A DNA stretch of 64,000 bases from Candidatus Heimdallarchaeota archaeon (GCA_018238155.1 JABCTZ010000025.1:32001-96000); one strand, 5' to 3'; counted from the stretch's first letter, positions 41,640 through 58,558 are shown. Numbers and translations: made by a program. The notes: generated from the letters alone by a model not told the origin.

Positions 41640-43835
41640 CTAATTATTTGCAGACACACTTGATGTAAATAGATTTTTTACAAAAAACACTAAGTTTTGT
41701 TCTGTCAAAGGATCGACTGATTCTCCTTTCTGACTTTGTTCTAGTATCGTATTCCATAATTCAGGTAATTGGTTTTGAAGAGAAGTAATTATGGTCTCTA
41801 ATTTTTCAAGAGCAGTATATGATTGTCCATCAAAGACATAGCAAAAACTCAAATCATTAAATGATTTCAGAATAACAAGAAGATCACGATACAAAATTCT
41901 TTGCAATGGTTTTTTACCTTTAGGTGTATCTTTAAGTATATTTGAAATTGATAAAGTAAATTCTTCAATAATCATATCATTATGCTTTATTTTTTCTTGT
42001 AAGAAAGTTTGATGGTAGATTGGAATTCCCGTAGGATTGAATATGATTAGCATAACGGGTTTTTCTACTGGTAAATCTTCAGCGTCAATGTAATTTTGCT
42101 TAATCTTTTTAATAATATTTTCAAACCCACTCCTTTCTACACGGTTTGCTAAGGAAAGGTCTTTCTTTGTTGTTAATTCAATAGCTTGTGAATCTCTTAA
42201 CATTATATCAAATTCATTTGAGATGGTCATTGCTAGTCTTTTGAACCCTTTTTCTTCCGCTATTTGTTGAGCTTGAGTAAACATATGGTGAGCTTTAACA
42301 ATATCTAACTCAATTAATGCAAGATAAGCTAATAACCAATTAGCTTGTGCGATAAGCCATAATGATTCTTGTTTACTTGCCATCTCATAAAGTAGATACA
42401 AATATTTTTTCATTTCAGTGAAAGATTCTTCATTGCTGTTCTTTCGAATCTGATTTAATAATATATCACATAGATTTAGCAGAACATCACCATAAATTTC
42501 AATGTTGATTATTTTTTCTTCAGCTATCTGCTTTAGTATATTCAATGCTCTTTCTAAATCTTGTTCATTTCTTTTGAATTTTAAAACCAAGGCTTCTGCT
42601 ACTCTTGACCAAAGATTAATGTTATCATTCGTTTTCTTTTTGTTTAGTTTTTGTAGTTGCTTCAAATATTGTTGAGCATTTTCTAAATCATTATCAAAGA
42701 TTGAAACTGATATAATATTATATAATATCATTCCTATAGAATTTTCAACGTTCAATTTCTTCGTAATCTCTAATGCCTTATAGAAATACACAAAAGCTAA
42801 ATCATAGTCTCCTTTTTGTGAATAAACAGAACCCAATCTATCCAAATGATAAGCAACATTTCGTTTAATGTCTAATTCTTCAAAAATCCTTAAACTATAA
42901 TCAAAGGATGCTAAAGATAAATCAAGATTACCACGTAACCTATGAATCAAAGCAATATTAGATACTAAAGAACCAATCAATCCTTTATTATCTATTTCTT
43001 TGAAGAAATCTAGTGATTTGTTTAGAAATTTCAATGCAGAACTAAACTCTCCAGATAAATAGTATATCAAACCTTGAAGAAGATTAACTTGCCCTAAGAG
43101 ATTTTTATTTTCGGTATTTTTAAGAATCTTGAAGACTTTATCAATATACAAAGAAGCCTCTTTTAATTCAGAATTTCTTAAGAAAGTATTTGAAAATCCT
43201 AAAAGAGTTCCACTAAGAACTTCTCTATTTCCAATCTTTTCTTGAATCTTTATAGCATCAAGAATAATTGACCTGCCATCCTTGTCACCTTTCACAAAAG
43301 AGGCATAGCCAAGTCTAAACAATACTTCAGCAATTTTTTCTTCATTACCTTGTTGCTGAAAAAAGGTCAAACTTTTTTGAAAGTTTTCAATAGCCTTGTC
43401 CATTTCATTTCTTCGCATTTGAAAGAGACCAACTAATTTATTATACTCAGCTCTTCGTTTCTGGCTAGCTATTCCCGTCTTTTCATGTATTGTTTCTAGT
43501 TGTTCCTCAATTTGCTTAAGAATTGAAGCAAATTCCCCTGTTTGTCCCAATTCATTTTTGACTTCCCCTTCTATTTGTAATGAATCAATAATTAGTAAAC
43601 TATCATCCAGTACTTCACTTAAGATCAAAGATTTATTTGCCAATGTTAGACATGTTGTATAATCTGCAATATAAAAGTGAATCTTTGACTTTCTTAGTAA
43701 CAACTCTATTTGAAAAGGGGTACCCATATCACTTTCGCTTAGATATTCATCAATGATTTCTAATCCTTCTCGATAATTTCCTTTTGTAAGCAACTTATCT
43801 ATTTCTTCTAATTTAGCTGATTCTTTTTTAAACAA
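41640..43835 (-). CDS. TPR protein with C-terminal longin-like domain, copy 1
   Basis: Multiple TPRs (NIALIHRLRGNLDLSL, LGSVYSQKGDYDLA); C-terminal MLIIFNPTGIPIY...FCYVFDGQSY. Confidence 0.85.
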   Translation of the reverse strand: MFKKESAKLEEIDKLLTKGNYREGLEIIDEYLSESDMGTPFQIELLLRKSKIHFYIADYTTCLTLANKSLILSEVLDDSLLIIDSLQIEGEVKNELGQTGEFASILKQIEEQLETIHEKTGIASQKRRAEYNKLVGLFQMRRNEMDKAIENFQKSLTFFQQQGNEEKIAEVLFRLGYASFVKGDKDGRSIILDAIKIQEKIGNREVLSGTLLGFSNTFLRNSELKEASLYIDKVFKILKNTENKNLLGQVNLLQGLIYYLSGEFSSALKFLNKSLDFFKEIDNKGLIGSLVSNIALIHRLRGNLDLSLASFDYSLRIFEELDIKRNVAYHLDRLGSVYSQKGDYDLAFVYFYKALEITKKLNVENSIGMILYNIISVSIFDNDLENAQQYLKQLQKLNKKKTNDNINLWSRVAEALVLKFKRNEQDLERALNILKQIAEEKIINIEIYGDVLLNLCDILLNQIRKNSNEESFTEMKKYLYLLYEMASKQESLWLIAQANWLLAYLALIELDIVKAHHMFTQAQQIAEEKGFKRLAMTISNEFDIMLRDSQAIELTTKKDLSLANRVERSGFENIIKKIKQNYIDAEDLPVEKPVMLIIFNPTGIPIYHQTFLQEKIKHNDMIIEEFTLSISNILKDTPKGKKPLQRILYRDLLVILKSFNDLSFCYVFDGQSYTALEKLETIITSLQNQLPELWNTILEQSQKGESVDPLTEQNLVFFVKNLFTSSVSANN

Positions 43836-44102
43836 AGTTAGAACACATCTTTGATGATTTTAGGATTAAATTCTTCTAAATCGGCAAATCTATTTTAAAT
43901 TATTAAGATATAACAATCAATTTTTTATAAAAAGAATTTGGTTTGTTAAAATAAGTCAAATTTCTTAAAAGATCTTAACATTCAAACACTTTTTTTGGTA
44001 ATCATAAAATAAAATAAGTAAAGATAGAATGGAAGAATTTTTCAGATTGTTTTATTCATTCCTCAATAAAAAAAATGCTAATTAGTTGTCTATGATCCAG
44101 TC

Positions 44103-44272
44103 AATGTTGTAAAATGTACAATCAGAAATGTAAAGACACTACAATCAGCAGGTATGAAAAGGTTATCCGAAATCTTTATTGAAAATCTCTCGAATAATGC
44201 AGCAATACCATCATACCAAACGAGTGATAAAAATCTTAGATATAAAACAAGAAAATACATGTGAAAAACTAT
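44103..44272 (-). pseudogene. Decayed copy of the 3' part of the phytol/dolichol kinase-like gene, with an internal deletion
   Basis: Matches about 46886-46987 joined to 47189-47252 at the AAAGCAGCAAT microhomology. Confidence 0.85.
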
Positions 44273-44325
44273 GAAATTGATTATTTAGATAACAGAAATG
44301 AATCATAAATAAGAAACTATCAAAT

Positions 44326-46518
44326 TTATGTTGCCAGTAAACCTGTTGTGAAAAGATCGTTAATGAAGAGCATTAAATTCCGCTCTGTCAATTGATCTAC
44401 AAATTTCCCTTTTTTACTTTGAAGAACAATCTTATCCCACAATTTTGGCGACTGGTTTTGAAGAGATGTTATAATAATTTCTAATCGCTCAAGAGCTGTA
44501 TATGATTGTCCATCAAAAACATAACAAAAACTAAGATCATCAAATGATTTCAAGATAACAAGAAGTTCTCGATACAAAATTCTTTGTAAGGGTTTTTTAC
44601 CTTTAGGTGTATCTTTAAGTATATTTGAAATTGATGAAGAAAACTCATCAATAATCATACCATTGTGCTTTATTTTTCCTTGTAAGAAAGTTTGATGGTA
44701 AATTAGACGTCCTTTAGAATTGAAAATACAAAGCATTATAGGTTTTTCTTCACGAAAATCATCTTCATCAACGATATTCTGTTTAATCTTTTTAATAACA
44801 TTTTCAAACCCACTCCTTTCTACACGCTCTGCTAAGGAAAGATCTTGCTTTGTTTTAAGCTCGTTATCACCTGATTTTCTTATCATTTTATCAAATTCGT
44901 TTGAAATATTCATAGCTAATCTCTTAAATCCTTTTTCTTCCGCAATTTGCTGAGCTTGAGTAAACATAGACAGAGCTTTAACCATATCTAATTCAATTAA
45001 TGCAAGATAACCCAATAGCCAATTAGATTGTGCAACAAGCCAAAACGAATCTTGTTTCTTGGCCATTTCATACAGTTGAGTCAAGTATTTCCTTATTTCA
45101 GTCAGATATACTTCTTGATTCTTTTTTCTAAGCAAATCCAATAATATATCACATAGATTAAGCAGAACTTCACCATAAATATCAATTTTAGGTTTATCTT
45201 CGTCGGCAATTTTCTTCAAAATAGTAAAAGCACGTTCAACATCATGATCATTTTTTTGTGATTTTAAGACCAGAGCTTCTGATATTCTAGTCCAAAGATC
45301 TATTCTTTTGTTTGAAGTCTCGTTATTAATTTCTTTTAATTCCACTAAATATTGTTGAGCATTTTCTAAATCATCATCATAAATTGAAACTGAGATAACA
45401 TTAGATAATATTTTTGCTTTTGCTATTTCAATATTTAGTTCTTTATATTTCTCTAGAGACTTAAAATAATAAACTAAAGCTAAATCAAGCTCTCCTTTTC
45501 GTGCATAAACAGAACCCAATTTGTCTAAATGATAAGCGATATTTTGTTGATTGTTTAATTCTTCGAAAATTAACAAGCTTTGTTTAAAAGAAGCCAATGA
45601 TAAATCTAGCTCACCTCGCAAATTATGAATTGAACCAATATTGGAAATTAGTGAACCAATTAATTTTTTATTTTCGATTTTTCTAAAAAAAGCTAGTGAT
45701 CTATTTAGAAATTTCAGAGCTAAACTGAATTCTCCTTTTCCGTAGTACAACAATCCTTGATAATTGTTAGCCATTCCCAAGAGATATCTATTTTCTGATT
45801 TTTCTAGAAGTTTGAAAATTTTCTCAAGAATTAAAAAGGCTTGTTTTCGATCGCCACTTCTTAAATATCTTACAACAAGCAACAAATAGCTTCTGCATAG
45901 AGCTTCTTTATTACCATTTTTTTCTTGTATTTCTATTGAATCAAAAATTATTAATGCATTTTCCTTTTCACCAATATTGGAGTACAGATATCCAAGTCTA
46001 CTCATTACTTCTGCAATTTTATCTTGCATATTAAGCTGCTTAAAAATGGTCAAACTTTTTTGAAGTTCTGCAATTGCTTTCTGTAGATTACTTATTTGCT
46101 GTTGATACATACCACATAATTTGTGATATTCAGCTTTTTGTATTTGTACTGCAGACTTTTTCTCTTCTTGTTTTACTTTTAGTTGTTCTTCAATTTGCTT
46201 AAGAACATAGAAAAGTTCATTTATTTGACCTAATTCAACATAGATTTCACCTTGAATTTCTAATGAAGTAATAATTAGTAAACTATCATCTATCGCTTTA
46301 CTCAGAATCAATGATTTTGATGCTAATGCCAATGATGATGTATAATCAGATAAGAACAGGAGAAATTTGGATTTTCTTAATAATAATTCAATATAAAAAA
46401 GAGTTTGTTTGTTGCTTTTGTTGATGTATTTGTCAATAATATTCAATCCTTCTTTATAGTTACCATTCGTAAGATACTTTTCTATTTCTATCAATATACT
46501 ATGTTCATCTTGAATCAA
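44326..46518 (-). CDS. TPR protein with C-terminal longin-like domain, copy 2 (tandem paralog)
   Basis: Collinear with 41640-43835, with many identical blocks. Confidence 0.85.
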   Translation of the reverse strand: MIQDEHSILIEIEKYLTNGNYKEGLNIIDKYINKSNKQTLFYIELLLRKSKFLLFLSDYTSSLALASKSLILSKAIDDSLLIITSLEIQGEIYVELGQINELFYVLKQIEEQLKVKQEEKKSAVQIQKAEYHKLCGMYQQQISNLQKAIAELQKSLTIFKQLNMQDKIAEVMSRLGYLYSNIGEKENALIIFDSIEIQEKNGNKEALCRSYLLLVVRYLRSGDRKQAFLILEKIFKLLEKSENRYLLGMANNYQGLLYYGKGEFSLALKFLNRSLAFFRKIENKKLIGSLISNIGSIHNLRGELDLSLASFKQSLLIFEELNNQQNIAYHLDKLGSVYARKGELDLALVYYFKSLEKYKELNIEIAKAKILSNVISVSIYDDDLENAQQYLVELKEINNETSNKRIDLWTRISEALVLKSQKNDHDVERAFTILKKIADEDKPKIDIYGEVLLNLCDILLDLLRKKNQEVYLTEIRKYLTQLYEMAKKQDSFWLVAQSNWLLGYLALIELDMVKALSMFTQAQQIAEEKGFKRLAMNISNEFDKMIRKSGDNELKTKQDLSLAERVERSGFENVIKKIKQNIVDEDDFREEKPIMLCIFNSKGRLIYHQTFLQGKIKHNGMIIDEFSSSISNILKDTPKGKKPLQRILYRELLVILKSFDDLSFCYVFDGQSYTALERLEIIITSLQNQSPKLWDKIVLQSKKGKFVDQLTERNLMLFINDLFTTGLLAT

Positions 46519-46870
46519 ATTTATAACCTATCTTTTAAACATTTAAAGATTGAATTTCGCACTGACAAAATTATCATAGATTACTGAATTATTATCTATT
46601 ATTTTTTATAAAAGACTTTGGTTTTGGAATCTATAGACAAAGTCTTCACAAAAATCTACCATTTAGATATTTCTAACTCAATTTGTAGAATATTCTTGAA
46701 ATATTGAATATCAAATAGAAGTGATTTGGAGTTTAATAAATTCTACAAAATAAAAGTTTAAATTTAATTCCTCCTATAAATTTTTAACAAAAAAGAAGGA
46801 ACAAGAATCTCCTGTTCATTTGATGATTTTTCCTCAACTTTTTCCATTATTCATTTCAAAAAAATAGAAC

Positions 46871-47509
46871 CTACATTCCTGCTAGGGTTGTAAAATGAAT
46901 GATTAGAAATGTAAAGACACTACAAGCAGCGGGAATGAAAAGATTATCCGTGCCCTTTATTGAAAATGTCTCGAATAAAGCAGCAATTAGAGAGGCTGTT
47001 CCTGCGAGGAAAAAGATAATCCAAATTTTAAGTTCATAAAAGTAGAAATGTACAATTAAGCATGAAACAAGAAGTATCACAAAAGAAGCTATGAAACCTG
47101 AAAGAATACCTAACCAACTTTTTTGATTGCCAAAAATAGTCATTTTTTTCTCATCTGGAACAAATTTAATGCCAATAAAAGCAGCAATACCATCATACCA
47201 AACGAGTGGTAAAAATCCTAGATATAATACAAGAGGATACATATGAAAAACTAAAACAATCCAAGTTAATGAAATAGCATAGAAAATTGTTCCTAACTTT
47301 TGCCCGTCCTCATAGGATCCAAGACGCATTTTTTCAATTGGTGAAAGTGGACCTGTAAGCCAATTAAGGGGGATAAATAGAGCTGGAATTAAACCAGCAT
47401 AGAAACCATAATCAAATAAGAAAGGAGTAAGAAAAATGATATTTCCAACACTAATATGGATAAGTTTTCTCGAAATAACATCTCTGATGTTAAATTTTCT
47501 TTCTAGAAC
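46871..47509 (-). pseudogene. Phytol/dolichol kinase-like (CTP-dependent polyprenol kinase) membrane protein, apparently 5'-truncated
   Basis: Frame extends upstream of ATG 47329 through SRKLIHISVG to a TAG at 47510-47512 with no start codon; KSWLG and DNLFIP motifs. Confidence 0.7.
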
Positions 47510-47840: not shown

Positions 47841-48270
47841 ATGGATGAAAAAACTTGTATTTTTTTGTAAGATAGTTAGAAAAGAAACATACGCAGCTAT
47901 TCTTTATGAAGATGAAGATATATTGGCATTCATGGATATAAAACCGATCAATGAGGGACATGCTTTGATCATTCCTAAGAAACATGCTGTTTTAGTTGAA
48001 GAATTAGATAATGAATTATATCTGAAGCTATTTCCAATTGCTAGTAAAATTGCAAAAAGAATTAGAGATGTAATTCCTGAAACAACAGCGTTTAATTATT
48101 TTATAGCTGATGGAAAAGATGCAGGACAAGAAGTGTTTCATGTTCACCTTCATATTATTCCTCGAAAACCGAATGATGGTTTTGGTTTTACTTTCGAAGA
48201 AGAATATTATAATCGATTATTATCCAAAAAAGAACGTGAAAAGATAAGAGATAAAATTATCCCTATATAG
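47841..48270 (+). CDS. HIT family nucleotide hydrolase, with an extra T in the 47860-47866 run
   Basis: AFMDIKP..GHAL.IPK.H, AGQEVFHVHLHIIPR; removing one T restores MDEKTCIFCKIV. Confidence 0.85.
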
Positions 48271-48343
48271 ACTGCTGAAAAACTTTCATTAATAAACCAA
48301 TTACTCTAATAATCAATAAATGAATTTAACATTGGTGGCATAA

Positions 48344-49177
48344 GTGGACATTGTTGTACTAGATGTTGTAATTCCAGTTTCAGTAACAATATTTCTTACA
48401 TTAATCCATTTTGTGGGTGAAAAAATAAGTTCGCGATTGCATAAATGGCACTTTCAACTCGAGAGTTTAGGAGCAGGGTTAATGGTAGGCATTCTCTTTT
48501 TAGAGTTGTTTCCTCAAATTTCGATTGGAGCAATTGTATTGGATTTTTACATCTACATTCCATTGCTAACTGGCTTTGTTATAATTGCGCTTATTGAAAA
48601 AATTGTTTATAAAAAAATGCTAAAAGAGGATACTATAACCAATAATAGATTATCACAAATTGACAAGGAAGTGAATAACGAAACAACCTCAGATTCAAGT
48701 GTCGAACACGAAAGCGACATTATGGAACTCGTTTGTATAATCCCAGAACAAAATGCTATTTTTGAAGCAATTGCTTTAGTTACTCATAGTTTAATGATTG
48801 GTATATTAGTTGCTTTGGTTTTTTCTGAATATCCTCTTGAAGTAAGTTTCATAATAATGATTCCTTTTGTCATTCGAGCTTTTACCGTTGCTTTCTCTGC
48901 AGAACAAATCATGGAAGATTTAAATAAAAAACCGGAAAAAATATTTCGCATTCTAGGTGTTATAACTCCATCTTTAGGAGCTTTAGCGGGAGTATTTCTT
49001 GTTTTTAATCAAATAACCTTTTTTATTATCTTTGCTTTTGCTCTAGGTTTGGTTCTTTTCACCGTCATTCGAGATATGATCCCTCTCGGTAAAAAAGGGA
49101 AACCAATGTTCTTTCTTATCGGAGTTATCTTTACTGTTGGAATTTTCCTTCTGAATGAACTTGTACTTTTACATTAA
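48344..49177 (+). CDS. ZIP-like metal transporter / membrane protein
   Basis: LGAGLMVGILFLELFP, HSLMIG, GLVLFTVIRDMIP. Confidence 0.7.
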   Translation: MDIVVLDVVIPVSVTIFLTLIHFVGEKISSRLHKWHFQLESLGAGLMVGILFLELFPQISIGAIVLDFYIYIPLLTGFVIIALIEKIVYKKMLKEDTITNNRLSQIDKEVNNETTSDSSVEHESDIMELVCIIPEQNAIFEAIALVTHSLMIGILVALVFSEYPLEVSFIIMIPFVIRAFTVAFSAEQIMEDLNKKPEKIFRILGVITPSLGALAGVFLVFNQITFFIIFAFALGLVLFTVIRDMIPLGKKGKPMFFLIGVIFTVGIFLLNELVLLH

Positions 49178-49204
49178 GAGAAAAACTAAACCTCTCCTAT
49201 TCTT

Positions 49205-49999
49205 TTATCTTTTTTTTCTTTTAGAGAACATTTTCTTGTAAATAGTGATTCTGAGTTTTCGAGGAAGGTTTCGAGCAAAGAAAGCTAAGAATTTATTTCT
49301 AAAACCAGGAATACTGTAGATCTTGCCTTTTTTCAAATCTTTTAAGGAGGTGCCTACAACCTTCTCAGCAGTCATGAATTTTCTCTTATAAACAGGATGA
49401 TCAGAACCATACCCCAATTTCTTATGAAAGTCAGTTATGGTAAAACCTGGGCAAAGAGCTTGAATCTTTATACCCTTATCTCGTAATGAAAAATCAAGCG
49501 ACTCTGAGAAGTAGTTTAGGAAAACTTTTGTGGCACTGTACATGGCACTTGGACTAGGTGTAAATGATGCAAGTGATGAAACATTAATAATAACACCTTT
49601 TCCTTTTGCAAGCAAACCAGGTATAATCGCATGAGTCAGTTTAAGGGTAGCGATGTTATGGACCTGAACCATATTGACATGATTTTCGATCGCAACTTTA
49701 TGGAATGATCTACTCTCTCCACCGAAACCGGCATTATTCACAAGTATTTCTAAGTTGGGAGAATTCCTTATTCGTGCCTCTGCTAGCTTTAGTTCATTTT
49801 CCTTTCCAAGATCAATTAACATATAATCAGCATTAATTCCATTTTCTTCTGTAAGTTCTTTGCAAAGCTCTTCAAGAAGATTTTCTCTTCGACCTATAAG
49901 AATTAAATCATAACCATCGTTTGCAAATCTTCGGGCAAAGGCAGCACCTATTCCACTTGATGCTCCTGTTATTAGTGCTTTTGCTCTGCTTTTGGTCAT
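49205..49999 (-). CDS. Short-chain dehydrogenase/reductase
   Basis: TGASSGIG, NNAG, YSATK, LCPG. Confidence 0.92.
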   Translation of the reverse strand: MTKSRAKALITGASSGIGAAFARRFANDGYDLILIGRRENLLEELCKELTEENGINADYMLIDLGKENELKLAEARIRNSPNLEILVNNAGFGGESRSFHKVAIENHVNMVQVHNIATLKLTHAIIPGLLAKGKGVIINVSSLASFTPSPSAMYSATKVFLNYFSESLDFSLRDKGIKIQALCPGFTITDFHKKLGYGSDHPVYKRKFMTAEKVVGTSLKDLKKGKIYSIPGFRNKFLAFFARNLPRKLRITIYKKMFSKRKKR

Positions 50000-50055
50000 A
50001 GTAAATCAAGAAAAACATACTGCTTGTGCTTAAGAGGTTTCTTGTCTCAAAGATA

Positions 50056-50127
50056 ATGTTCTTAGTTATTGGAGTTGCCTTTACTATTGGGGTTTACTTT
50101 CTGAATAAACTTATGTCTGTTCAATAA
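50056..50127 (+). pseudogene. 3' remnant of a second ZIP-like transporter allele
   Basis: MFLVIGVAFTIGVYFLNKLMSVQ* aligns gap-free with MFFLIGVIFTVGIFLLNELVLLH* (49106-49177). Confidence 0.8.
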
Positions 50128-50132
50128 AAAAA

Positions 50133-50390
50133 TTATCCCCCAACATCTTTTCTTTCTAGAACAACAATTCCTATTATTAGGAGGATTACAGTGATCAAAA
50201 TCATTACTATCAACGAAATCAATGGGTGAATATAATTGGTTTCAGTTAGTAGGGAAGTTAAATTATTTTCAGTATCATTTGCTCCTAGGAATGCTGAGAT
50301 ATCTGTAAATTGATTTACATATGTTTAAAAAAAAACCTAAATTCTGTTGGAAGGATGGTATTGGTTGAAATCCGAATGGTTTTAAGAATA
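50133..50390 (-). pseudogene. 3' remnant of a second ABC permease allele
   Basis: Diverged direct repeat of about 52879-53140, ending ...GIVVLERKDVGG*. Confidence 0.9.
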
Positions 50391-50960
50391 GGAGGAATAT
50401 ATACTGATAAGGTAATCAAATATAATTGTAAAATATTTATCAATTATTTCAGAGAATCTCTTAAACGATTTACTATTGAGAAGGAAAAACTCACTATATT
50501 TTTTCTTTAATTTAGCTTCAATGTTTAAAGAAAGAATTCTTTTATTGAAGCTTTCATTCATCATTAATATGATCTTTTCAATAGCTTTTATAGATGCTTT
50601 AGATCTAATAGCTATATAATCTAAAAGAGAGTATTTCATTTTGTAATATTTTTTCCTATCCTTAGTTTTCTTAACGATTTCAACAGTATCTAACTTTACA
50701 AGTTTTGATAATACTTCTGAGACGGTACTTCTGCCATAATTAGTAAACTTGATCAAGTAATCTTGAGTAACTGGATTTGGTTCAATCATTAATGTCTGTG
50801 TAATTGCTGTCAATTCTCTACTTCTAACATAGATTGATTGAGAGTCTATTGCACGTTTCACAAAATCTTGTTTTATCTTATATAAAGAGTCATTTTCAAT
50901 GGATTGGTTTTTTGTTAACTTTTTTTGGATAAAAGTTTCAAAGTCAATTTCAGATCCCAT
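50382..50960 (-). CDS. GbsR/MarR-like wHTH transcriptional regulator
   Basis: VTQDYLIKFTNYGRSTVSEVLSKL...DRKKYY; probable start ATG 50960. Confidence 0.7.
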   Translation of the reverse strand: MGSEIDFETFIQKKLTKNQSIENDSLYKIKQDFVKRAIDSQSIYVRSRELTAITQTLMIEPNPVTQDYLIKFTNYGRSTVSEVLSKLVKLDTVEIVKKTKDRKKYYKMKYSLLDYIAIRSKASIKAIEKIILMMNESFNKRILSLNIEAKLKKKYSEFFLLNSKSFKRFSEIIDKYFTIIFDYLISIYSSYS

Positions 50961-51083
50961 GTTTTCATTTGCAAGTGTTAGAATATAATTGGGATTTAAC
51001 AGATATTTATATTCATGAACATTACAATAAAAAATAGATGCTAGAAATAGAGAGAGTATCACAAAAATTTAGGAGAAATCGTA

Positions 51084-52019
51084 TTGAGTAAGACCATTCA
51101 AAATATCATTCTGAATGTTTCAAATATAACTAAAATTTATGGAAGAGATATTTCCATAGGAAAAAGGACTATTAGAAAACGAGTTGTTGGAGCAGAGAAT
51201 GTTTCCTTTGATGTAATGAAAGGAGAAATCTTTGGCTTCCTGGGACCAAATGGTTCTGGAAAAACAACAACTATTAGATCTATTCTTGACTATTTACATA
51301 TTCAAGAAGGCGAGATAACTGTCTTTGGCTTAGATCATCATAAAGATGCATTAAAAATTAGAAAGAGAATTGGCTATGTTTCTGGTGATATGGCACTCTA
51401 TGAAAATTTCACAGGTTTGGAATTGATAAATTATTTTAACAAACTAAGAAAACATGATGAAGAATTCTTAGTAGAATTAAAGTCAATATTCACTGTTGAT
51501 TTAGATAGAAAAGTAAGGACTCTTTCTAAGGGTAACAGACAACAGATTGGTTTAATTCTTGCTTTAGCTTCTAAACCAGAATTCCTAATTTTGGATGAAC
51601 CATCATCAGGATTAGACCCACTAATAACAGCACAATTTCATCGACTATTGAAACGATTAAAGACAGAGGGAACTACCATATTCCTAAGTTCACATGATCT
51701 TTCTGAAGTGCAAAGTATCTGTGACCGCGTGGGTATTATAAAAGATGGAAAGATTATTCTCGTTGAAGAAATGGAAAGCTTACGGTTGAAATTCTTACAG
51801 ATTGTCGATGTAACATTTTTAGATAAGACACCATCAAAGGATGAATTATTAACTTTAGAAAATGTCCTCGAGATTAAAGAAAGAAACACACATCGTTATA
51901 ATTTACGAATAAAGGAGGATGTGAATGAGATTATTCAATTTCTTTCAACATACTCAATAAGTAGATTGGAAATAAAAGATGCTTCTCTGGAAGAAATTTT
52001 TCTACATTATTATGAATAG
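51084..52019 (+). CDS. ABC-2 exporter ATP-binding protein
   Basis: GPNGSGKTT, LSKGNRQ, LILDEP, SSH. Confidence 0.93.
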   Translation: MSKTIQNIILNVSNITKIYGRDISIGKRTIRKRVVGAENVSFDVMKGEIFGFLGPNGSGKTTTIRSILDYLHIQEGEITVFGLDHHKDALKIRKRIGYVSGDMALYENFTGLELINYFNKLRKHDEEFLVELKSIFTVDLDRKVRTLSKGNRQQIGLILALASKPEFLILDEPSSGLDPLITAQFHRLLKRLKTEGTTIFLSSHDLSEVQSICDRVGIIKDGKIILVEEMESLRLKFLQIVDVTFLDKTPSKDELLTLENVLEIKERNTHRYNLRIKEDVNEIIQFLSTYSISRLEIKDASLEEIFLHYYE

Positions 52020-52031
52020 GAGGACAAAAAA

Positions 52032-52832
52032 ATGGTACATATTCTATTAAAAAATATGAAAAAGAGTATATTGTCAGGTATTCTACCGCCTTTAATTATT
52101 GTTCTCATGATAATAATGATTTCTGGCATATGGCCTTCAGTAAAGGTTCATATGGCAACCTTTGCAGACATATTAGAAAATCCTGTTTATGAAGCAATGC
52201 TAGGACAATTAGGATTAGCTGATATCAGTACATTTCAAGGATTCTTGAGTATCGAAATTTTTACTATGTTAGAGATGACTATGATTTTCATCACAATGCT
52301 CATACCCGCAAGGATGATTACATCAGAAGTCGATAAAAGAACATTAGATATTACAATAAGTTACCCAATTACTCGTTGGCGATTAATCCTTGAGAAATTT
52401 GGTGCCTATCTAATCTACAATCTTCTCTATCCTATATTATTGATAACTACAACAATAATTGCCAATGAGATTTTGAATGAAGATATTAATTATACCCTTC
52501 TATCATATGCTGCAATTGGCTCATGGTTACTCTTCTTCGCTTTAGGTGCTATCTCATTACTTTGTGGAGCAGTTTTTCTCGAAGGCAAAAAAGCTATCGC
52601 AGCTGCCGCTGGAATAATTTTAGGTATGTGGGTACTAGTAAGATTTAGCGGATTTGTTGAAGAATTAGATTTCCTCAAATACATGTCACTTTTCCATTAT
52701 CTAAATGCGGCAGTAATATTCAATGCCGGTAAAATGCCATTAGATGAACTCTTCATTGTAATAGGTGTCGGTTTGGCAGCATTAATCAGTGCGTTAATTA
52801 TTTTTGAAAAGAGGGAATTAACTATCGTCTAA
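52032..52832 (+). CDS. ABC-2 exporter permease
   Basis: EVDKRTLD...PITRWRLILEK; about six TMs; FEKREL. Confidence 0.88.
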   Translation: MVHILLKNMKKSILSGILPPLIIVLMIIMISGIWPSVKVHMATFADILENPVYEAMLGQLGLADISTFQGFLSIEIFTMLEMTMIFITMLIPARMITSEVDKRTLDITISYPITRWRLILEKFGAYLIYNLLYPILLITTTIIANEILNEDINYTLLSYAAIGSWLLFFALGAISLLCGAVFLEGKKAIAAAAGIILGMWVLVRFSGFVEELDFLKYMSLFHYLNAAVIFNAGKMPLDELFIVIGVGLAALISALIIFEKRELTIV

Positions 52833-52878
52833 TTCTCTTCTTTGCTTCTTTTTATAATTACATTTAATAAAAAAGAAA

Positions 52879-53958
52879 TTATCCCCCAACATCTTTTCTT
52901 TCTAGAACAACAATTCCTATGACTAAGAGGACAATAGTAATCACAATTAATACTGTCAACGAAATCAATGGGTGAATATAATTAGTTTCAGCTAATAAGA
53001 ATGTTAAATTATTTTCAACATCGTTTGCTCCGAGGAACGCTGAGATATCAGTAAATTGATTCACATACGTTCCAAAGAATAAGCCAAAATTTTGTTGGAA
53101 GAATGGTGTTGGTTGAAATCCAAATGGTTTTAAAAATAAGATGAAAATTGTGCTTAAATTATATCCAAGATCAATTATGTAGAGAGACCACGTTTCATAA
53201 TATCCTGGAAGAGCTAATCGTAATAGTATTCCAACAAAATAAATCACTATTATTGCTAACATTATAAATACAACGTTGATAACAACTTTCTTGTTTATAA
53301 TTGACATGAAACCCATTATAAAACCAATAATTGCAATCATCATTAAAGCATACAAATAAATTGGAACAAGATAGAGCAATGATTGTAGAAACACATCAAA
53401 TGAGACTTGGAAAACTGTGCATGGTATTACAAGTCCGAGGAACAATGAAAATAGTTGTAGGATTGCCATATTGACGAAATAACCTACAAATTTACCAAAG
53501 AATATAGTCGATCTTCTTATTGGTTTAGTCATTAGAAAAATCAATGTTCCACTATTCTCTTCTCCTGAAATAAATGTTGAAGCTGACAAACCACAGAAGA
53601 GAAATAGAAGTATTCCTGCATTCCAAAAGAATGCGTAAAATGCGAAATGGCTCACAATAGTTGTAACTTGAAAATTAATATTCAAATCTGATAATGGAAC
53701 AATCAAATTTTCGGCAGTCACATTAGAGAAAATAAATGGAAAAATGATTGAGAGAATAACATAAACAATTACTCGAGTCGCTCCAAACATCTCTATAAAT
53801 GTTTTTTTGAAAATCATGAACATACCAAAGTATACTTTATTGTCTCGAGGAAGTTTCTCAGTTTCTTTCTTTTCCTTTATCTTCTTAGGTTTTTCACCAA
53901 TTATTGTTGGTTCAATGGTCAATGGTTTCTTTTCAGGTTGTGGTAAAGGCATTTCCAT
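52879..53958 (-). CDS. ABC-2 exporter permease
   Basis: EENSGTLIFLMTKPIRRSTIFFGK; ERKDV. Confidence 0.88.
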   Translation of the reverse strand: MEMPLPQPEKKPLTIEPTIIGEKPKKIKEKKETEKLPRDNKVYFGMFMIFKKTFIEMFGATRVIVYVILSIIFPFIFSNVTAENLIVPLSDLNINFQVTTIVSHFAFYAFFWNAGILLFLFCGLSASTFISGEENSGTLIFLMTKPIRRSTIFFGKFVGYFVNMAILQLFSLFLGLVIPCTVFQVSFDVFLQSLLYLVPIYLYALMMIAIIGFIMGFMSIINKKVVINVVFIMLAIIVIYFVGILLRLALPGYYETWSLYIIDLGYNLSTIFILFLKPFGFQPTPFFQQNFGLFFGTYVNQFTDISAFLGANDVENNLTFLLAETNYIHPLISLTVLIVITIVLLVIGIVVLERKDVGG

Positions 53959-53962
53959 ATGA

Positions 53963-55063
53963 TCATCCCCTCCTCACTCTCTTTAACAAGCCACCTTGCT
54001 CAATCTGTTGCTCATACAACAGCTCTTCCTCGTAGAGAAATTCTGAACCATATCGCTTCGAGATAACATTAATGAACACTTCTTCTAGAGTTACTTCAAT
54101 GGGAGAAAAGCGTCTAAGTTCAGAGCCATTCCTTTGAAGAATTTCAGGCAGTTGGACATATACGTAATCAATGAAATCACTTTGAAAGATAATAGTATCA
54201 TTTGAATCAAGATATATTTTTGTTGCAACTCCAAGGCTAGATAAATCTTCTATCACTTGTTTTGCATTAGAACATTCCAAAGCATATTCTCCTGTTGAAA
54301 ATTCTTTCCGCATTTCAGCTAATGTAGTAGTTAAACCAATTTTTCCTTTTACAATAATAGTAACTCGAGATACTAGTTTTTCGATTTCGGTGAGAATATG
54401 TCCACTTACAAAAACACTTGTACCTAACATACCTGCTAATTCTTTGATAGTATTGACTAATTTAAAGCGTGATTCAGGATCGAGTCCTGCAGTACTTTCA
54501 TCAAGAACAGCTAAACGTGGATGATGCATTAATGCTTGCGCAACGGCAAGTTTTGCTTTCATACCCGTCGAGAATTTTGCCGGATGCCGGAAACCATGTT
54601 TAGTCATTTCTAGAATATGTAGGAATTCCTTTGCTCGTTCTTTTGCAAGAGTTTTCTGCATACCAGTAAGTCGTCCCATATAAATTAAATAATCATAAGC
54701 AGTCATAGATTTCCAAAAGTTAGGATTGGCTATTGCTACTCCTATCAGTTTATTTGCTGCAGGTGTTCCAATTGGTTTACCAAAAATGTATCCTTTGCCA
54801 CTTGTTGGTCTGTATGTTCCGGCAATCATTAACATTGAAGTGGTTTTTCCAGCACCATTTGGTCCTAAATAACCATGGACTTCTCCCTCCTTGACAGATA
54901 TATTAATCCCATCAACTGCTTTTACTTGGTTATATCCCTTACCAAAGTATTTCTTTAAATTAATAGTTTGGATAGCCAAATTTTCATCTATTTCAATTTC
55001 TTGTTCTTCAATTTCATCTTGTACTACCGGGAGGTTCTTAGATTGATCTGTGGTCAAATTCAT
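53963..55063 (-). CDS. ABC-2 exporter ATP-binding protein
   Basis: GPNGAGKTT, FSTGM, VLDESTAGLDP, SGH. Confidence 0.92.
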   Translation of the reverse strand: MNLTTDQSKNLPVVQDEIEEQEIEIDENLAIQTINLKKYFGKGYNQVKAVDGINISVKEGEVHGYLGPNGAGKTTSMLMIAGTYRPTSGKGYIFGKPIGTPAANKLIGVAIANPNFWKSMTAYDYLIYMGRLTGMQKTLAKERAKEFLHILEMTKHGFRHPAKFSTGMKAKLAVAQALMHHPRLAVLDESTAGLDPESRFKLVNTIKELAGMLGTSVFVSGHILTEIEKLVSRVTIIVKGKIGLTTTLAEMRKEFSTGEYALECSNAKQVIEDLSSLGVATKIYLDSNDTIIFQSDFIDYVYVQLPEILQRNGSELRRFSPIEVTLEEVFINVISKRYGSEFLYEEELLYEQQIEQGGLLKRVRRG

Positions 55064-58000
55064 TTACTGTTCACCCTCCATTTCTAGAGATGGACCAAAG
55101 TCAGCTAAATTATCTTTTGGTCTTACTTTGACAAAAATCTTCAACCCAACAAAAGTGAAGACAATTACGCTTATTGCAATCCAAAGAATGACTACTCCAC
55201 CACCTTTTTCATTAACTACCACAAGTGAAGCATAAGCACTAATTCCATTACGATCAGTAATAGCAACAGAGACATTATGTTCACCATTGCTTAGATAAAT
55301 AGTTACTTCAGATTCAAAAGTAAAGGCAATTTCTGTTCCACTAAGAAATATTTGAGAATAGACTTCTTGTGCAGAAGTTTCCCAAAATAATTGGAACTTG
55401 CCACTATGTTCTGGTTGTATTTCTATATCAAAAAAATCAATTGAAAAATGGTTATTTATCGCTCTAAGTCTTCCAAAATTATCTAGAAAAACAATGTTCC
55501 CTTTCAGTGTTCCATTTAATTCAGAAGGCAAAAATGCAGACATAACTAATCCGTCAATTTTTTTCCAAATTAGACCGGTATCACTATCTATAATAATTGA
55601 AGAAAAGTCTCCTGTTGGAGTAAGAAGAGTCATCAAAATATCTTCTTTGTTATTTCCAGAAACATCACCAAGATTTTTCATAAAAGCCGCAGGCATAATT
55701 GTAGGATGAGAAAACTCTTCTTTGAGAACAGGAACAAAGCTATAACTGGTTTCCACTGTTGCAATTGATTTTGATACATCAATTAATTCTAAAGTCATTC
55801 CTTGAGCGATTTCATCCGTTCCACCACCTTGATTGACTGACCATGCGAAAAGTAGCTCTGGAATAGAATCACCATTTATGTCTGAAATGTAATCAGTAAA
55901 TTCAGTTATCCCTGCTTTCTTAAATTGATCCATATAATAAAATCCATTGTCAAAATTCGCTTTATTAACAAAATACAAGCTTAGGAATGTTCCATCTGAA
56001 CCATCAATAATATAGTACCCTCGTGAAAGGGAATTTGCATCACCACTACTCCAAGGAACAAAAGCTATGTGATCTCTTATTCCATCATTATTGAAATCAA
56101 CTTGGTATAATTCCAAATTTAAGTCATTGATGTTTCCTTTGATGTCATATACAATTATTCCTGTTTCCAAATCAAAAATCGAAATTAGCATTTGTTCATT
56201 TTGATTTCTATTTAATGCCAATATTGTTTCATTGTGGGTTTCTTCCATATGGAAAATGAAATTTTCTTCATCTATCCAACCATCTGTATTTTGCCAATTC
56301 CAATGTAGAGAAGAAAAATTCGTTGAATCTACTAAGACTACGCGATTATCACCAATTATTAGGATGTCCTCAGATGAATTACCAACTAAATCACCTATAT
56401 TATAGATAACACCTCTATGTGGAAGCCAATTTCTATAATGAGGATCAAAAATATCTGTTTCTCGAGTAAGATTCCAAAGATAATTACCATCTAGACCACT
56501 ATGACAATATAAGTAACCATTTTGACCTGTAACAAGAATATCCTGAAGTCCGTCTGAATTTTGATCTTCAACAGGTGCAATTGAAATTATTTTCAATTGA
56601 TCAGGATTATACACCCAATTAGGATCAGTGGCTGTGGTTTCCCAAACAATGGAACCATTAAAACCATTAAGCAACAGAACTTTTGAAATGTTTTGGAGCA
56701 AGTATGTTTGCGTAGAAGTTTCTCTTTGTGCTAACCACAAATCTGGAATGCCATCTCCAGTTATATCATCAGCTAATTCTACTTGGCTGTATCCACCACT
56801 TAATAATAGTTGATCTTCCATAGTCATTTCATGATTCCAAATTGTTTCTCCAGTTGAGCCGTCCACGACAGCTAATTTCGTTATCGTATAACGATTTGTT
56901 TGCCAATTATCTAGATAATGAATACTTTTACGAAGAAAGTCATTAGTTGAATCATTATTTATATCATAAAAAATTTCCATTTGTTCTTGAGCAGAAATAG
57001 TTAAACGCCAAACTAATTCTCCGGTTTCTCCATTAAGAGCAAAAAGACCGTATCCTGCAAGAAAAATAAGAACTTCAGATTCAAGTGAACCTGTAATATT
57101 GTTAATAGAAAAAGCATAGTTGCCTGTAAAAGGATAATTGCTTCCTTGACTTTCCGAACCAGAATTCAAATCAAAATTCAAACTGTTAGTAAATGCTGAA
57201 ATTTCCCACTGATCAATTAATGTGTTATTTTCTAAAGAATAGATATCAATTAGAAAAGTGTTTGTGGTATTTTCAACTCCTGTAGGTATGATTAATTTTG
57301 TAAAACTACCATTACCATCTTGTGAGCTATGTGATGTAACAGATCTTACTTTATCAATATCAATAGAAGATAAACTCCATAATACATTCATTTCATTTTG
57401 CTCAATATCTATAACTGATACAGTACTATTTCCGAACGTTCCTGTTCCACGCCCTAAGGTAAGAATTTGAGTGTCAGAGGAGAGAGAATCTAATTCAAAA
57501 ACCATTACATTATAGAAAGTTTCAGAACCAAAATAGGCTATGTTATGAGTCGTTCCTGTTATTGAAAATGCTTTAACTTCATCAAGTAATTTTCCATTAG
57601 TAATATCGTATATTGAAACATAACCTGATTCACTTGAAATTATAACATCCTCTTTATTATCACCATTAAAATCTTCAAGTATCATTACATCATACACATT
57701 TTGATCTATTGTAATAGTAGTGCCTTGCTCTGTATTTGTATATTGAAGTGATTCAGTAGCTTGTATGGTCCAGATTTTATTACCATTTTTTCCTGAAACA
57801 ACTAGTAATTCTCCATCTTGCGTTCCAAAGATGACTTCATTTATGCCGTCTGAATCTAAGTCATCAGCTAATAAATCAAGTGACCATATATCATCTGACC
57901 CACTTGCGGACCACAAAAGAGAACCATCAATAGCATCTAATGCATAAACAGTATTATACGACGAAATCAAAACGTCATCTAACCCGTCACTCGTCAAATC

Positions 58001-58558
58001 CTCTATTTGTAAACCATTCCAAGACCGAGTTTCTTTTTCTGTAAAACCAATTCCATCGACAAAGACTGTAACTGTAGGACGGAATGACCAGATTTTTTCT
58101 CCGGAAAAACCATCAATTAATTCAGTATTATTAAAATCTTGAGTATCGACTGTGATTAGTACATCTCTGATGTTATCATTTGTAACATCGCTTAATGGTG
58201 TAATACTTAGAATTGCTCCTGGAGTAGAAATAAACCAAAAAATTGTTCCTAATTCAATATTGATTTTGGAAAGACCAATGTTGGAACCCATGTAGAGAAT
58301 TTCCTCAGAACCAACTCCATTAATCGAATCTAAAACTGGTCGACAAGTAGTATCATCAGGCAAACCTGAAAAGGATGACCATATTTCACCATCATTTGGA
58401 TCAGAAGTTGCAGTAAGCGATGGCAAAGAGGGGTTTACAGAAAGAGCATTTGAAGTGGAAATTTTACTGGTAGACATTGTTGTACTAACTAAAAATGAAA
58501 TAAAAGGAGTTGCTAATAGTATAAATAAAAGAGTGATTGTTTTTTCCTTTCGGAGCAT
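55064..58558 (-). CDS. Large surface protein with FG-GAP/PQQ-like beta-propeller repeats and C-terminal TM anchor
   Basis: Repeated DxxxDGxxD loops (DLTSDGLDD, DFNGDNKED, DITGDGIPD, DINGDSIPE) and DGxTGExxW; probable start ATG 58558. Confidence 0.82.
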   Translation of the reverse strand: MLRKEKTITLLFILLATPFISFLVSTTMSTSKISTSNALSVNPSLPSLTATSDPNDGEIWSSFSGLPDDTTCRPVLDSINGVGSEEILYMGSNIGLSKINIELGTIFWFISTPGAILSITPLSDVTNDNIRDVLITVDTQDFNNTELIDGFSGEKIWSFRPTVTVFVDGIGFTEKETRSWNGLQIEDLTSDGLDDVLISSYNTVYALDAIDGSLLWSASGSDDIWSLDLLADDLDSDGINEVIFGTQDGELLVVSGKNGNKIWTIQATESLQYTNTEQGTTITIDQNVYDVMILEDFNGDNKEDVIISSESGYVSIYDITNGKLLDEVKAFSITGTTHNIAYFGSETFYNVMVFELDSLSSDTQILTLGRGTGTFGNSTVSVIDIEQNEMNVLWSLSSIDIDKVRSVTSHSSQDGNGSFTKLIIPTGVENTTNTFLIDIYSLENNTLIDQWEISAFTNSLNFDLNSGSESQGSNYPFTGNYAFSINNITGSLESEVLIFLAGYGLFALNGETGELVWRLTISAQEQMEIFYDINNDSTNDFLRKSIHYLDNWQTNRYTITKLAVVDGSTGETIWNHEMTMEDQLLLSGGYSQVELADDITGDGIPDLWLAQRETSTQTYLLQNISKVLLLNGFNGSIVWETTATDPNWVYNPDQLKIISIAPVEDQNSDGLQDILVTGQNGYLYCHSGLDGNYLWNLTRETDIFDPHYRNWLPHRGVIYNIGDLVGNSSEDILIIGDNRVVLVDSTNFSSLHWNWQNTDGWIDEENFIFHMEETHNETILALNRNQNEQMLISIFDLETGIIVYDIKGNINDLNLELYQVDFNNDGIRDHIAFVPWSSGDANSLSRGYYIIDGSDGTFLSLYFVNKANFDNGFYYMDQFKKAGITEFTDYISDINGDSIPELLFAWSVNQGGGTDEIAQGMTLELIDVSKSIATVETSYSFVPVLKEEFSHPTIMPAAFMKNLGDVSGNNKEDILMTLLTPTGDFSSIIIDSDTGLIWKKIDGLVMSAFLPSELNGTLKGNIVFLDNFGRLRAINNHFSIDFFDIEIQPEHSGKFQLFWETSAQEVYSQIFLSGTEIAFTFESEVTIYLSNGEHNVSVAITDRNGISAYASLVVVNEKGGGVVILWIAISVIVFTFVGLKIFVKVRPKDNLADFGPSLEMEGEQ

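Follow-up and report, generated by a model that had tools for sequence, protein, structure and literature searches.

Two gene insertions bounded by diverged gene-tail copies at a convergent gene junction of a Heimdall-group archaeon

The stretch of DNA analyzed here (the window, 64,000 nt) comes from a metagenome-assembled genome (MAG) of a Heimdall-group (Asgard) archaeon, GCA_018238155.1, of 4.08 Mb (completeness 90.7%, contamination 5.9%). Two small gene insertions lie between a ZIP-like gene and a convergent ABC-2 permease gene, and each is bounded by a diverged second copy of a gene tail. The features of the locus, with positions counted from the first letter of the window, are as follows.

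48344..49177, plus strand: intact ZIP-like membrane-protein gene, 277 aa (an ORF; family not established)
49105..49185, plus strand: repeat copy A, the last 23 ZIP-like codons, the stop and 8 nt of the old intergenic spacer (from the alignment)
49186..50054, minus strand: SDR insert, with the SDR gene at 49205-49999, ~17 nt downstream of it and ~55 nt upstream
50055..50132, plus strand: repeat copy B, a ZIP-like tail remnant of 23 codons, open, with its stop at 50125-50127, plus a 5-nt spacer
50133..50400, minus strand: permease remnant R, the last ~89 codons of an ABC-2 permease allele, frameshifted
50130..50174 (= 52876-52920): 45-nt block identical in both permease tails, their longest identical run
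50382..51062, minus strand: truncated wHTH regulator ORF, 226 aa (weak MarR_2/TrmB/HTH_27 matches)
50400..50415: J1, a junction without homology between permease-internal sequence (~270 nt from the stop) and the regulator 3' end
51084-52019, plus strand: intact ABC ATPase, 311 aa (Pfam ABC_tran)
52032-52832, plus strand: intact exporter ABC-2 permease, 266 aa (Pfam ABC2_membrane_2)
52842..52878: 37-nt spacer, from the end of cassette homology (52841) to the permease stop
52879..53958, minus strand: intact ABC-2 permease gene, 359 aa (Pfam ABC2_membrane_2; synteny in all relatives)
Cassette unit, 2,746 nt: remnant R, the doubly truncated wHTH regulator, the intact ABC exporter and the 37-nt spacer

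The ZIP-like gene comes after a HIT gene (47845-48270) and has orthologues in 9 of the 11 genomes of the family. The first-pass annotation called it a ZIP gene. Membership in the ZIP metal transporter family (PF02535) is not supported: no Pfam match even at E<=10 and no NCBIfam match was obtained for 48344-49177, and what remains is a weak atlas lead (score 0.88 to an Asgard cluster with PF02535 in 19% of its members). The permease stands at the end of an operon that also encodes an ABC ATPase (53963-55063) and a beta-propeller protein of 1193 aa (55064-58645). The SDR gene is recognized by Pfam (adh_short, 3.8e-41), and an SDR locus elsewhere in the genome of the relative G006 (C150) shows homology spanning window positions 49188-49985.

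The cassette has lost parts of its regulator at both ends. The stop codon of the regulator (50382) does lie inside the permease remnant, as first described, but the ORF is a fragment and not a whole gene, corresponding to the C-terminal half (domain) of a two-domain family of 348-402 aa. Relative to G006, ~600 nt are deleted at 50998-51004, and with them the N-terminal domain and some of the divergent intergenic sequence; about 6 codons are lost at J1. At this junction permease homology stops at ~50400-50406, and homology to the G006 regulator is detected from 50415 in nucleotides and from ~50407-50409 in protein. Exact-protein look-ups of the regulator with two start choices gave no match, and J1 is therefore without an independent assembly. 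The exporter pair (51084..52832) is full length compared to homologues of 68%–80% amino acid identity, which sit in other genomic contexts; G006 and four metagenomic contigs carry the cassette at unrelated loci. A donor with the exporter convergent on a permease was not found; the closest exporter homologues (79%–80% amino acid identity) adjoin a FAD oxidoreductase, GATase or TPR gene, and a metagenome scan with the permease as query returned only three distant loci (53%–61%). Homology of the cassette to G006 ends 9 nt past the exporter stop. By eye, against the junction of the metagenomic contig L060, the last ~20 nt of the spacer beyond it resemble the end of the ZIP-like gene and the old spacer. 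This similarity is suggestive only (p=0.07), and the spacer was not accepted as a third ZIP remnant.

No integrase, transposase or Cas1 domain is found in the ORFs of either unit, where Pfam detects SDR, weak wHTH, ABC_tran and ABC2_membrane only. A search for features of transposons, IS elements or casposons gave no inverted repeats at the insert ends and no transposase domain, in agreement with the first description of the inserts; the duplications measure 81 and 280 nt. The sole tyrosine recombinase on the contig is ~30 kb away. In the whole genome, Pfam identifies one canonical Cas1 (contig C15) and two tyrosine recombinases, none of them adjacent to the locus.

Both second tail copies proposed from the initial inspection were recovered, with matches far stronger than chance would give. 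Copy B, first placed at 50056-50127, matches copy A at 58/78 positions without gaps (50055-50132 versus 49105-49182), and the next best 78-nt match to the ZIP-like tail in the whole window, both strands, is 42/78. For the permease, where a second allele had been assigned to 50133-50390, the segment 50123-50400 aligns to 52869-53148 with 85% identity over 280 nt (E=4.5e-86), and these are the only two places in the 4.08-Mb genome with this sequence. Remnant R carries a frameshift that had not been described, a single 2-nt deletion in a 9-nt homopolymer at about 50328-50337. The stop codons of the two remnants (50125-50127 and 50133-50135) indeed face each other 5 nt apart. A simple tandem duplication is rejected, since the remnants keep the facing arrangement of the original junction and do not follow one another in tandem order.

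In relatives the junction is observed in empty and in intermediate states. The ZIP-like gene is directly convergent on the permease in G008 and G006, with 13 nt between the stops, and in L060, a related metagenomic contig of a sister species, with 9 nt. Window positions 50055-50400 align to the empty junction of L060 as one colinear block (83%, 352 nt). Three pieces of the window, 47861-49185, 50055-50400 and 52869-55406, each align to this empty locus, and the first alignment stops exactly at 49185, the end of copy A. The sister species G009 contains the SDR gene only, in the order HIT-ZIP-SDR-permease. Other cargo at the junction includes a small Zn-ribbon ORF in G003/G002 and an unannotated minus-strand gene in G005; in L062, an LVIVD gene adjoins the permease. 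These comparisons support the convergent ZIP-like/permease junction as the ancestral state, and the earlier proposal that it survives in the middle of the locus is borne out by the block shared with L060.

The first-pass annotation regarded the copies on both sides as once functional alleles with mostly synonymous or conservative differences, as opposed to a fresh duplication, and named position-neutral substitution as the pattern that would speak against this. The view stands for the permease and not for the ZIP-like gene. Between R and the intact permease tail, dS is 0.48, dN is 0.08 and omega is 0.17. The branch of R itself has 13 synonymous and 11 nonsynonymous codon changes against a neutral expectation of 5.2/18.1 (P=0.0002), so that the position-neutral pattern of a tandem duplication with decay is not seen for the permease. 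Third positions differ at 20 of 89 sites between R and the intact tail, which is as many as between species of the clade (18-26). These data support the interpretation that the permease tails are distinct species-level alleles that were once functional and were shaped by purifying selection; the values of dS and omega likewise support an origin of one of the two tails in another species. Copy B of the ZIP-like tail differs at 18-21 positions from each intact allele of the clade, and the intact alleles differ mutually by 5-6. Its omega is 1.6, with 2 synonymous and 12 nonsynonymous codons versus 2.9/10.7 expected under neutrality, which fits neutral change and plain decay. As no trace of selection is present, duplication and decay explains the ZIP-like remnant.

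R falls in a clade of 100% bootstrap with the intact copy, G009, L060 and L062 and is nearest to none of them. The allele tree is a star of five alleles with only 35%–64% support for the internal branches, and therefore does not tell which permease tail is resident. Outgroup-polarized sites are only 9:5:4, with the intact tail grouping with G009 at 9 and R with G009 at 4. Sliding identity of the intact permease to G009 shows no break at the 3' end, where the tail is ordinarily similar. Along the gene, similarity is mosaic across three sister species, from which it follows that allelic recombination occurs here. The proposed foreign origin of the intact 3' ends is not shown by these data: the intact permease lacks a mosaic break relative to G009, and in the conspecific contig L073 an identical intact tail occurs although the cassette is missing.

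Because the SDR insert is common to G009, the SDR event is judged to be older than, and separate from, the cassette event. The ZIP remnant of G009 resembles the intact allele type significantly (p about 0.001-0.005), and its likeness to copy B is nonsignificant; the two remnants are thus taken to be orthologous from their position and from a few shared states noted by eye.

The cassette is polymorphic within the species. L073 (GCA_018238085.1) is 100% identical to window positions 47915-50132 and 52876-53949, and exactly the 2,746 nt between are missing, the intact permease tail being joined directly to the ZIP-like remnant. The intact tails of L073 and of the present genome (G000) are identical. 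The breakpoint falls within the 45-nt block, an identical run with P=0.018 when the 41 mismatches are placed uniformly. A second assembly, L063 (GCA_018238125.1), contains the ABC exporter, the spacer and the permease at 100% identity, and J1 and the join between the ZIP-like and permease remnants have one MAG contig as their sole support. In principle, the L073 junction could be produced by collapse of a short-k assembler across the 45-nt repeat.

The reading that we favor, with a probability of about 0.55, is that the junction was filled twice by DNA carrying the 3' end of the adjoining gene and recombining through that homology, the second time as a Campbell-type, polymorphic cassette. The gap of 9-13 nt between the convergent genes of this heimdallarchaeial genus would be a permissive insertion site, filled in this genome on two occasions by DNA with a copy of the tail of the neighboring gene. 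Since entry would have been through gene-tail homology, each insert would be bounded by a direct repeat of a gene tail. The older event, shared with G009, would have added the single SDR gene, bounded by the 81-nt ZIP-like repeat, after which the displaced ZIP-like copy may have drifted neutrally. The later event would have added the 2,746-nt unit, bringing a 270-nt fragment of the permease allele of another species, and would still be polymorphic. Gain or loss of the unit probably took place by a crossover in the 45-nt block, which is the only long identical stretch and lies at the very 3' end of the permease. For a unit without an integrase, this would amount to Campbell-type insertion or excision by homologous recombination, through a circular or one-ended intermediate. 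The unit itself may go back to an illegitimate join, at J1, of a permease-internal site to the regulator 3' end; this could have taken place in the present lineage or in a congeneric donor. L073 fits a remnant that came with the cassette at least as well as it fits a foreign intact end followed by a later deletion. Judging from the frameshift in R and the two truncations of the regulator, the unit has existed for some time, and this is hard to square with a very recent gain when the flanks are 100% identical to those of L073; if L073 had recently lost the unit, the polymorphism would be explained equally well. As to direction, therefore, both gain and loss are compatible with the favored reading, and R is only the presumptive foreign tail.

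The combination of gene, cargo and diverged tail copy recurs in this genome with ordinary cargo, at ppdK, at a racemase/RNA ligase locus and at others. Downstream of ppdK, at distances of 17 and 20 kb, lie two diverged copies of its tail of about 300 nt. At the racemase locus, identity to G009 is 88.5% for the orphan tail, only 77.4% for the intact tail and 83%–87% for the remainder of the gene; on these identities, the intact end is the foreign one there, and polarity differs between the tail-repeat loci of the genome. After removal by hand of multicopy families and paralog pairs, the orphan lies downstream of the gene in 15/17 pairs. The unfiltered count is 24/40 (p=0.27), and a genome-wide bias in direction is therefore not claimed. 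Two papers on Asgard mobile elements (PMC8813620, PMC11529989) make no mention of direct repeats, attachment sites or target site duplication.

An origin of the structure in the assembly, as a chimeric contig in which two co-occurring strains or species were joined via the shared 45-mer, is very improbable. The MAG does have the contamination given above, and cassette-less and cassette-bearing forms both occur in MAGs with adjacent accession numbers. However, a misjoin at the 45-mer could account for neither J1 nor the regulator fusion nor the frameshift in the remnant; L063 contains the same exporter-permease junction, and the remnant sequence is single copy in the genome. We give equally little weight to duplication of the gene ends in situ at insertion (as a long target duplication or by templated repair), followed by decay and, for the permease, by later allelic replacement of the live gene. 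The neutral pattern of the ZIP-like remnant and the mosaic permease would agree with such a course of events; the synonymous bias on R's own branch would not, as replacement of the other copy could not yield it, and neither does the identity of the intact tails in L073 and the present genome.

Homology-facilitated illegitimate recombination (HFIR) with the polarity of the first-pass annotation is a more serious alternative, which we nonetheless consider unlikely. Here a linear donor with regulator, exporter and permease, anchored through homology within the resident permease, would have replaced the 3' end of that gene with the donor allele and joined illegitimately at its far end at J1; R would be the resident tail and L073 the product of a later deletion between the tails. 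The racemase locus is a clear case of this polarity in the same genome. The third-position distance of R to G009, about 0.30 with decay allowed for, is within the genome-typical 0.27 +/- 0.056, R is contiguous with the resident ZIP-like remnant, and deletion between direct repeats is mechanistically easy. Against this, the intact permease shows no similarity break to G009 at its 3' end and groups with G009 slightly more than R does, two events are needed to explain L073, and natural transformation is not known to occur in Asgard archaea. Less likely again is site-specific, target-restoring integration by a recombinase acting in trans, in which the gene tails would be the att sites of decayed or nonautonomous integrative elements. 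The tail copies of ppdK resemble the present locus in repeat length and divergence, the breakpoint lies in a discrete identical core and an empty form exists. Yet neither unit encodes an integrase, Cas1 or transposase domain, the few recombinases of the genome are not adjacent, and the cargo consists of ordinary chromosomal genes that are found at other loci in relatives. In addition, polarity varies by locus, as expected for crossovers anywhere in a homology tract and not at a fixed core.

Insertion bounded by gene tails is a mechanism already known from bacteria, of which this locus is a clean natural example. In prophage e14 or phage 21 of E. coli (at icd) and in islands at the tails of tRNA or tmRNA genes, site-specific integration into a gene 3' end restores the target; such elements bring an integrase of their own, and recombination takes place at a fixed core. 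Analogous to these, two diverged tail copies flank the insert, the gene is intact, the displaced tail is a pseudogene at the far end and relatives have empty sites (G008, G006 and L060); the direct repeats contain an identical core of 45 nt and L073 is without precisely the unit. The present units differ from them in having no integrase gene, in their cargo (a single SDR gene or a single exporter cassette) and in a polarity that changes from locus to locus within the genome. HFIR occurs in transformable bacteria (de Vries & Wackernagel 2002; Prudhomme et al. 2002; Meier & Wackernagel 2003; cited via PMC5361080). It was demonstrated in experiments in which competent bacteria took up linear DNA. 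The present locus shares with HFIR a one-sided homology anchor to the resident gene (the 280-nt permease repeat at 85% with its 45-nt block, and the 81-nt ZIP-like repeat), a small insert and no integrase or transposase, and J1, narrowed to 50400-50415 and without extended homology, is a candidate for the end that is joined illegitimately. In contrast to those experiments, the host is an uncultured Asgard archaeon, and donor sequence up to the gene end, a feature of HFIR encountered at the racemase locus, is not evident in the intact permease. The same source (PMC5361080) describes arrays of displaced C-terminal ends in Rhs, CDI and T6SS effector-immunity loci (Jackson 2009; Poole 2011; Kirchberger 2017), for which HFIR was proposed as the mechanism. 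There too, recombination with the incoming module takes place where the resident gene is conserved, and the displaced 3' end stays downstream as an orphan. Those tips are alternative toxin domains under diversifying selection that come with immunity genes, whereas here the copies are orthologous alleles of ordinary transporters and the orphans are decaying. A further parallel is ppdK in the same genome, with gene, cargo and diverged tail copy and a similar repeat length. The units described here are of 0.9 and 2.7 kb, contain ordinary genes only and approach from both genes of a convergent pair.

A wider interpretation is offered tentatively, and we hold it to be rather unlikely: Heimdallarchaeia may routinely swap operon-sized cassettes of ordinary genes without an integrase, with a copy of the upstream gene's 3' end traveling along as portable homology, and the many orphan tails of this genome may be the footprint of a general, homology-anchored gene flow between Asgard species. 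A circle would be released by recombination between two tails and would enter the genome of a related cell by recombination with the orthologous tail there. Gene gain in Asgard archaea bears on how the archaeal ancestor of eukaryotes built a large, mixed gene set. The locus is a concrete and datable trace of congeneric gene gain with no mobile-element enzyme in the insert, and it allows an empty site, an intermediate state and a polymorphism within the species to be compared. If the pattern of orphan tails holds genome-wide, recombination through short, diverged homology would be a regular route of operon transfer in these organisms.

The locus lies on contig C8 (the window is C8:32001-96000) of a metagenome-assembled genome (MAG) of 4.08 Mb in 46 contigs, with a completeness of 90.7% and a contamination of 5.9%. 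Public records assign close homologues of the encoded proteins to Candidatus Heimdallarchaeota, which makes the host an Asgard archaeon. The genes around the junction are arranged as follows (positions in the window).

47845-48270, plus strand: HIT gene
48344-49177, plus strand: 277-aa membrane protein, "ZIP" in the first-pass annotation
49205-49999, minus strand: SDR
50382-51062, minus strand: wHTH-like ORF, the fragment of a regulator
51084-52019, plus strand: ABC ATPase of the exporter
52032-52832, plus strand: ABC-2 permease of the exporter
52879-53958, minus strand: PERM, a second ABC-2 permease, followed on the same strand by its own ATPase and a 1193-aa protein

The name ZIP found no support in Pfam or NCBIfam, and an atlas search gave a weak lead only; it serves here as a label. 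Second copies of the 3′ ends of ZIP and PERM lie between the SDR and the exporter. The PERM tail at 52869-53148 recurs at 50123-50400 with 85% identity over 280 nt and one 2-nt homopolymer deletion, and its sequence is present at just these two places genome-wide. The ZIP tail at 49105-49182 is matched by 50055-50132 (remnant B) at 58 of 78 positions, compared with 42 of 78 for the runner-up among ungapped matches on both strands of the window. The stop codons of the two remnants are separated by 5 nt. Window 50055-50400 aligns in one piece (83%) to a public contig from the same clade (L060), spanning the ZIP/PERM junction, which is empty there; the two genes of L060 match 47861-49185 and 52869-55406 in the same comparison. 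The fossil convergent junction proposed in the first-pass annotation is therefore real.

Relatives in which ZIP converges directly on the permease, as this proposal implies, were indeed found among the members of the genus compared, every one of them a MAG. The junction is empty in G008 and G006 (13 nt from stop to stop) and in L060 (9 nt). G004 has a 100-nt spacer; in G003 and G002 the junction measures 338 nt and contains a small zinc-ribbon ORF, and in G005 an unannotated gene on the minus strand lies in a junction of ∼880 nt. In G009, the closest species representative, only the SDR is present, and in another public contig of the clade (L062) an LVIVD gene adjoins PERM. The ZIP/PERM junction is a hot spot for small insertions. 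The ORF in G003 and G002 (loci L020 and L022) is conserved, ∼65 aa long, rich in Cys-X-X-Cys and zinc-ribbon-like. The left flank is variable too, synteny with G009 ending just upstream of the HIT gene. The present genome, G009 and L060 are roughly equidistant, at 85%–88% nucleotide identity.

The SDR has a locus elsewhere in G006 where homology covers 49188-49985, and the L060 alignment stops at 49185, which together place the SDR insert at 49186-50054. It is bounded by an 81-nt repeat consisting of the ZIP tail and 8 nt of spacer, and it is shared with G009, where the ZIP remnant in this position has decayed further. Over the short sequence available (72 nt), remnant B differs from each intact clade allele at 18–21 positions, whereas the intact alleles differ among themselves at 5–6. 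Of its changed codons, 2 are synonymous and 12 non-synonymous, where neutrality predicts 2.9 and 10.7 (omega 1.6). Nothing requires remnant B to have been a functional foreign allele, as first suggested; a tail duplicated when the SDR inserted, and decaying since, would suffice.

The PERM tails are of a different nature. Over about 270 nt, a short sequence for such tests, the two copies give dS 0.48, dN 0.08 and omega 0.17, and the remnant's own branch carries 13 synonymous and 11 non-synonymous codon changes compared with a neutral 5.2 and 18.1 (P = 0.0002). Third-position differences between the copies (20 of 89) are at the level seen between clade species (18–26). Duplication in situ followed by decay is therefore rejected for PERM, and here the suggestion of two once-functional alleles, not a fresh duplication, stands: one PERM tail derives from a different congeneric species. 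A well-supported clade unites all five PERM-tail alleles known; support for its internal branches is low, and outgroup-polarised sites favour grouping the intact tail with G009 only 9:5:4. The third-position distance between the intact tail and G009 is 0.23, against a genome-typical 0.27 ± 0.056, and no break in similarity was seen along intact PERM in comparison with G009.

The exporter cassette recurs at another locus of G006, with homology over 50415-50997 and 51005-52841. The regulator of the relatives is a two-domain protein of 348–402 aa; here ∼600 nt are deleted, and with them its first domain and some of the divergent intergenic region. The scar lies at 50998-51004; the divergent promoter region is largely gone along with the first wHTH domain, while the ∼80 nt preceding the ABC ATPase are still conserved with G006. 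At the other end, the regulator frame runs on into the PERM remnant in place of its own last ∼6 codons. Both transporter genes of the exporter are full length, and expression of the exporter may now proceed in the absence of the regulator. Both PERM copies have a T run just past the stop on the minus strand, of the kind that serves in archaeal termination; the PERM remnant would thus supply the regulator fragment with a stop codon and a predicted terminator. The closest exporter homologues, at 79%–80% amino acid identity, sit in unrelated contexts, and no donor with the exporter adjoining a PERM gene was found among the homologues examined.

The unit is polymorphic within the species. A second assembly (L073, GCA_018238085.1) is identical to 47915-50132, covering ZIP, the SDR and remnant B with its spacer, and then runs on as 52876-53949 with zero mismatches. 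It lacks exactly 2,746 nt, comprising the PERM remnant, regulator fragment, exporter and spacer, and its breakpoint falls in a 45-nt stretch (50130-50174 = 52876-52920), the only long one over which the two repeat copies are identical (P = 0.018). The unit has therefore been gained or lost through recombination between the two PERM tails. A third assembly (L063, GCA_018238125.1) contains the exporter, spacer and PERM at 100% identity. Farther left, L073 has 11 mismatches in 70 nt (47322-47392) at its contig end and a 1-nt indel at window position 47860. The indel falls in the HIT gene, for which the predicted product is 112 aa in L073 and 141 aa here.

A frameshifted remnant and a doubly truncated regulator point to a unit that predates this polymorphism. 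Either L073 would have lost the unit recently, or the present genome would have received it ready-made from a donor of the same architecture. The first-pass annotation had taken the intact 3′ end as foreign and the remnant as the resident tail, which at PERM is possible only if L073 is a secondary deletion. At the racemase gene on contig C20, this polarity is real. There, identity to G009 is 88.5% for the orphan tail, 77.4% for the intact tail and 83%–87% for the remaining gene, and the site is empty in G009 (C20:37312-39605, L079, versus L089). The foreign part of the intact gene is its last ∼300 nt, behind which lie a single RNA-ligase gene and then the displaced native tail: a clean 3′-end replacement with cargo. 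At a third locus, on contig C44, the polarity is reversed relative to the racemase, as may also hold at PERM.

The best-supported reading is that the incoming DNA brought a copy of the target's tail and that integration ran through this homology. The join between the PERM remnant and the regulator fragment (50400-50415), the structure of which comes from one MAG contig, shows no extended homology and would have been made without it as the unit originally came together. Such units may also be moved by a recombinase that acts in trans. Polarity that varies between loci fits crossovers at varying points of a homology tract better than the fixed core of a site-specific enzyme. The genome's best tyrosine-recombinase (Phage_integrase) match is a 351-aa ORF (window 18428-18862; C8:50428-50862), which may be the chromosomal XerA, not an element integrase.

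Similar arrangements occur elsewhere in the genome. A rough self-comparison gave 40 pairs of an ORF tail and an orphan diverged copy within 40 kb, and most of the 17 pairs kept by hand have omega 0.07–0.3 and dS 0.3–1.8. Example loci, with orphan tails 2–20 kb from the intact gene, are these.

C16:11266-16986
C39:26061-31020
C44:50343-52874
C20:133379-141151
C19:18169-38696

On C19, the last ∼300 nt of ppdK recur downstream as two diverged copies, at distances of 17 and 20 kb. Ordinary genes lie between the tails, among them RNA ligase, a MacB-type exporter accompanied by a TetR regulator, a leuABCD-like operon, ABC exporters with regulators and formamidase; Pfam detected no integrase in this cargo. 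The orphan lies downstream of the gene in 15 of the 17 hand-filtered pairs, compared with a non-significant 24 of 40 before filtering, and several targets belong to tandem paralog families; the census is therefore a lead, not a result. The orphan tail within 41658-47329 is a product of ordinary segmental duplication, not an insertion scar. A TPR gene of ∼2.3 kb was duplicated in tandem there (41658-43944 and 44341-46624, 73%), together with two 3′ pieces of a neighbouring 152-aa gene (44106-44206 and 44196-44271, matching 46887-46987 and 47178-47253 at 86%–91%).

Judged by the features tested, the PERM locus belongs neither to the transposons nor to the integrase elements. Parallels to the process are homology-facilitated illegitimate recombination, target-restoring integration at gene tails, and the displacement of C termini put forward for Rhs, CDI and T6SS loci (PMC5361080). 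As a single locus, it is a further example of an already known process in an unusual host.
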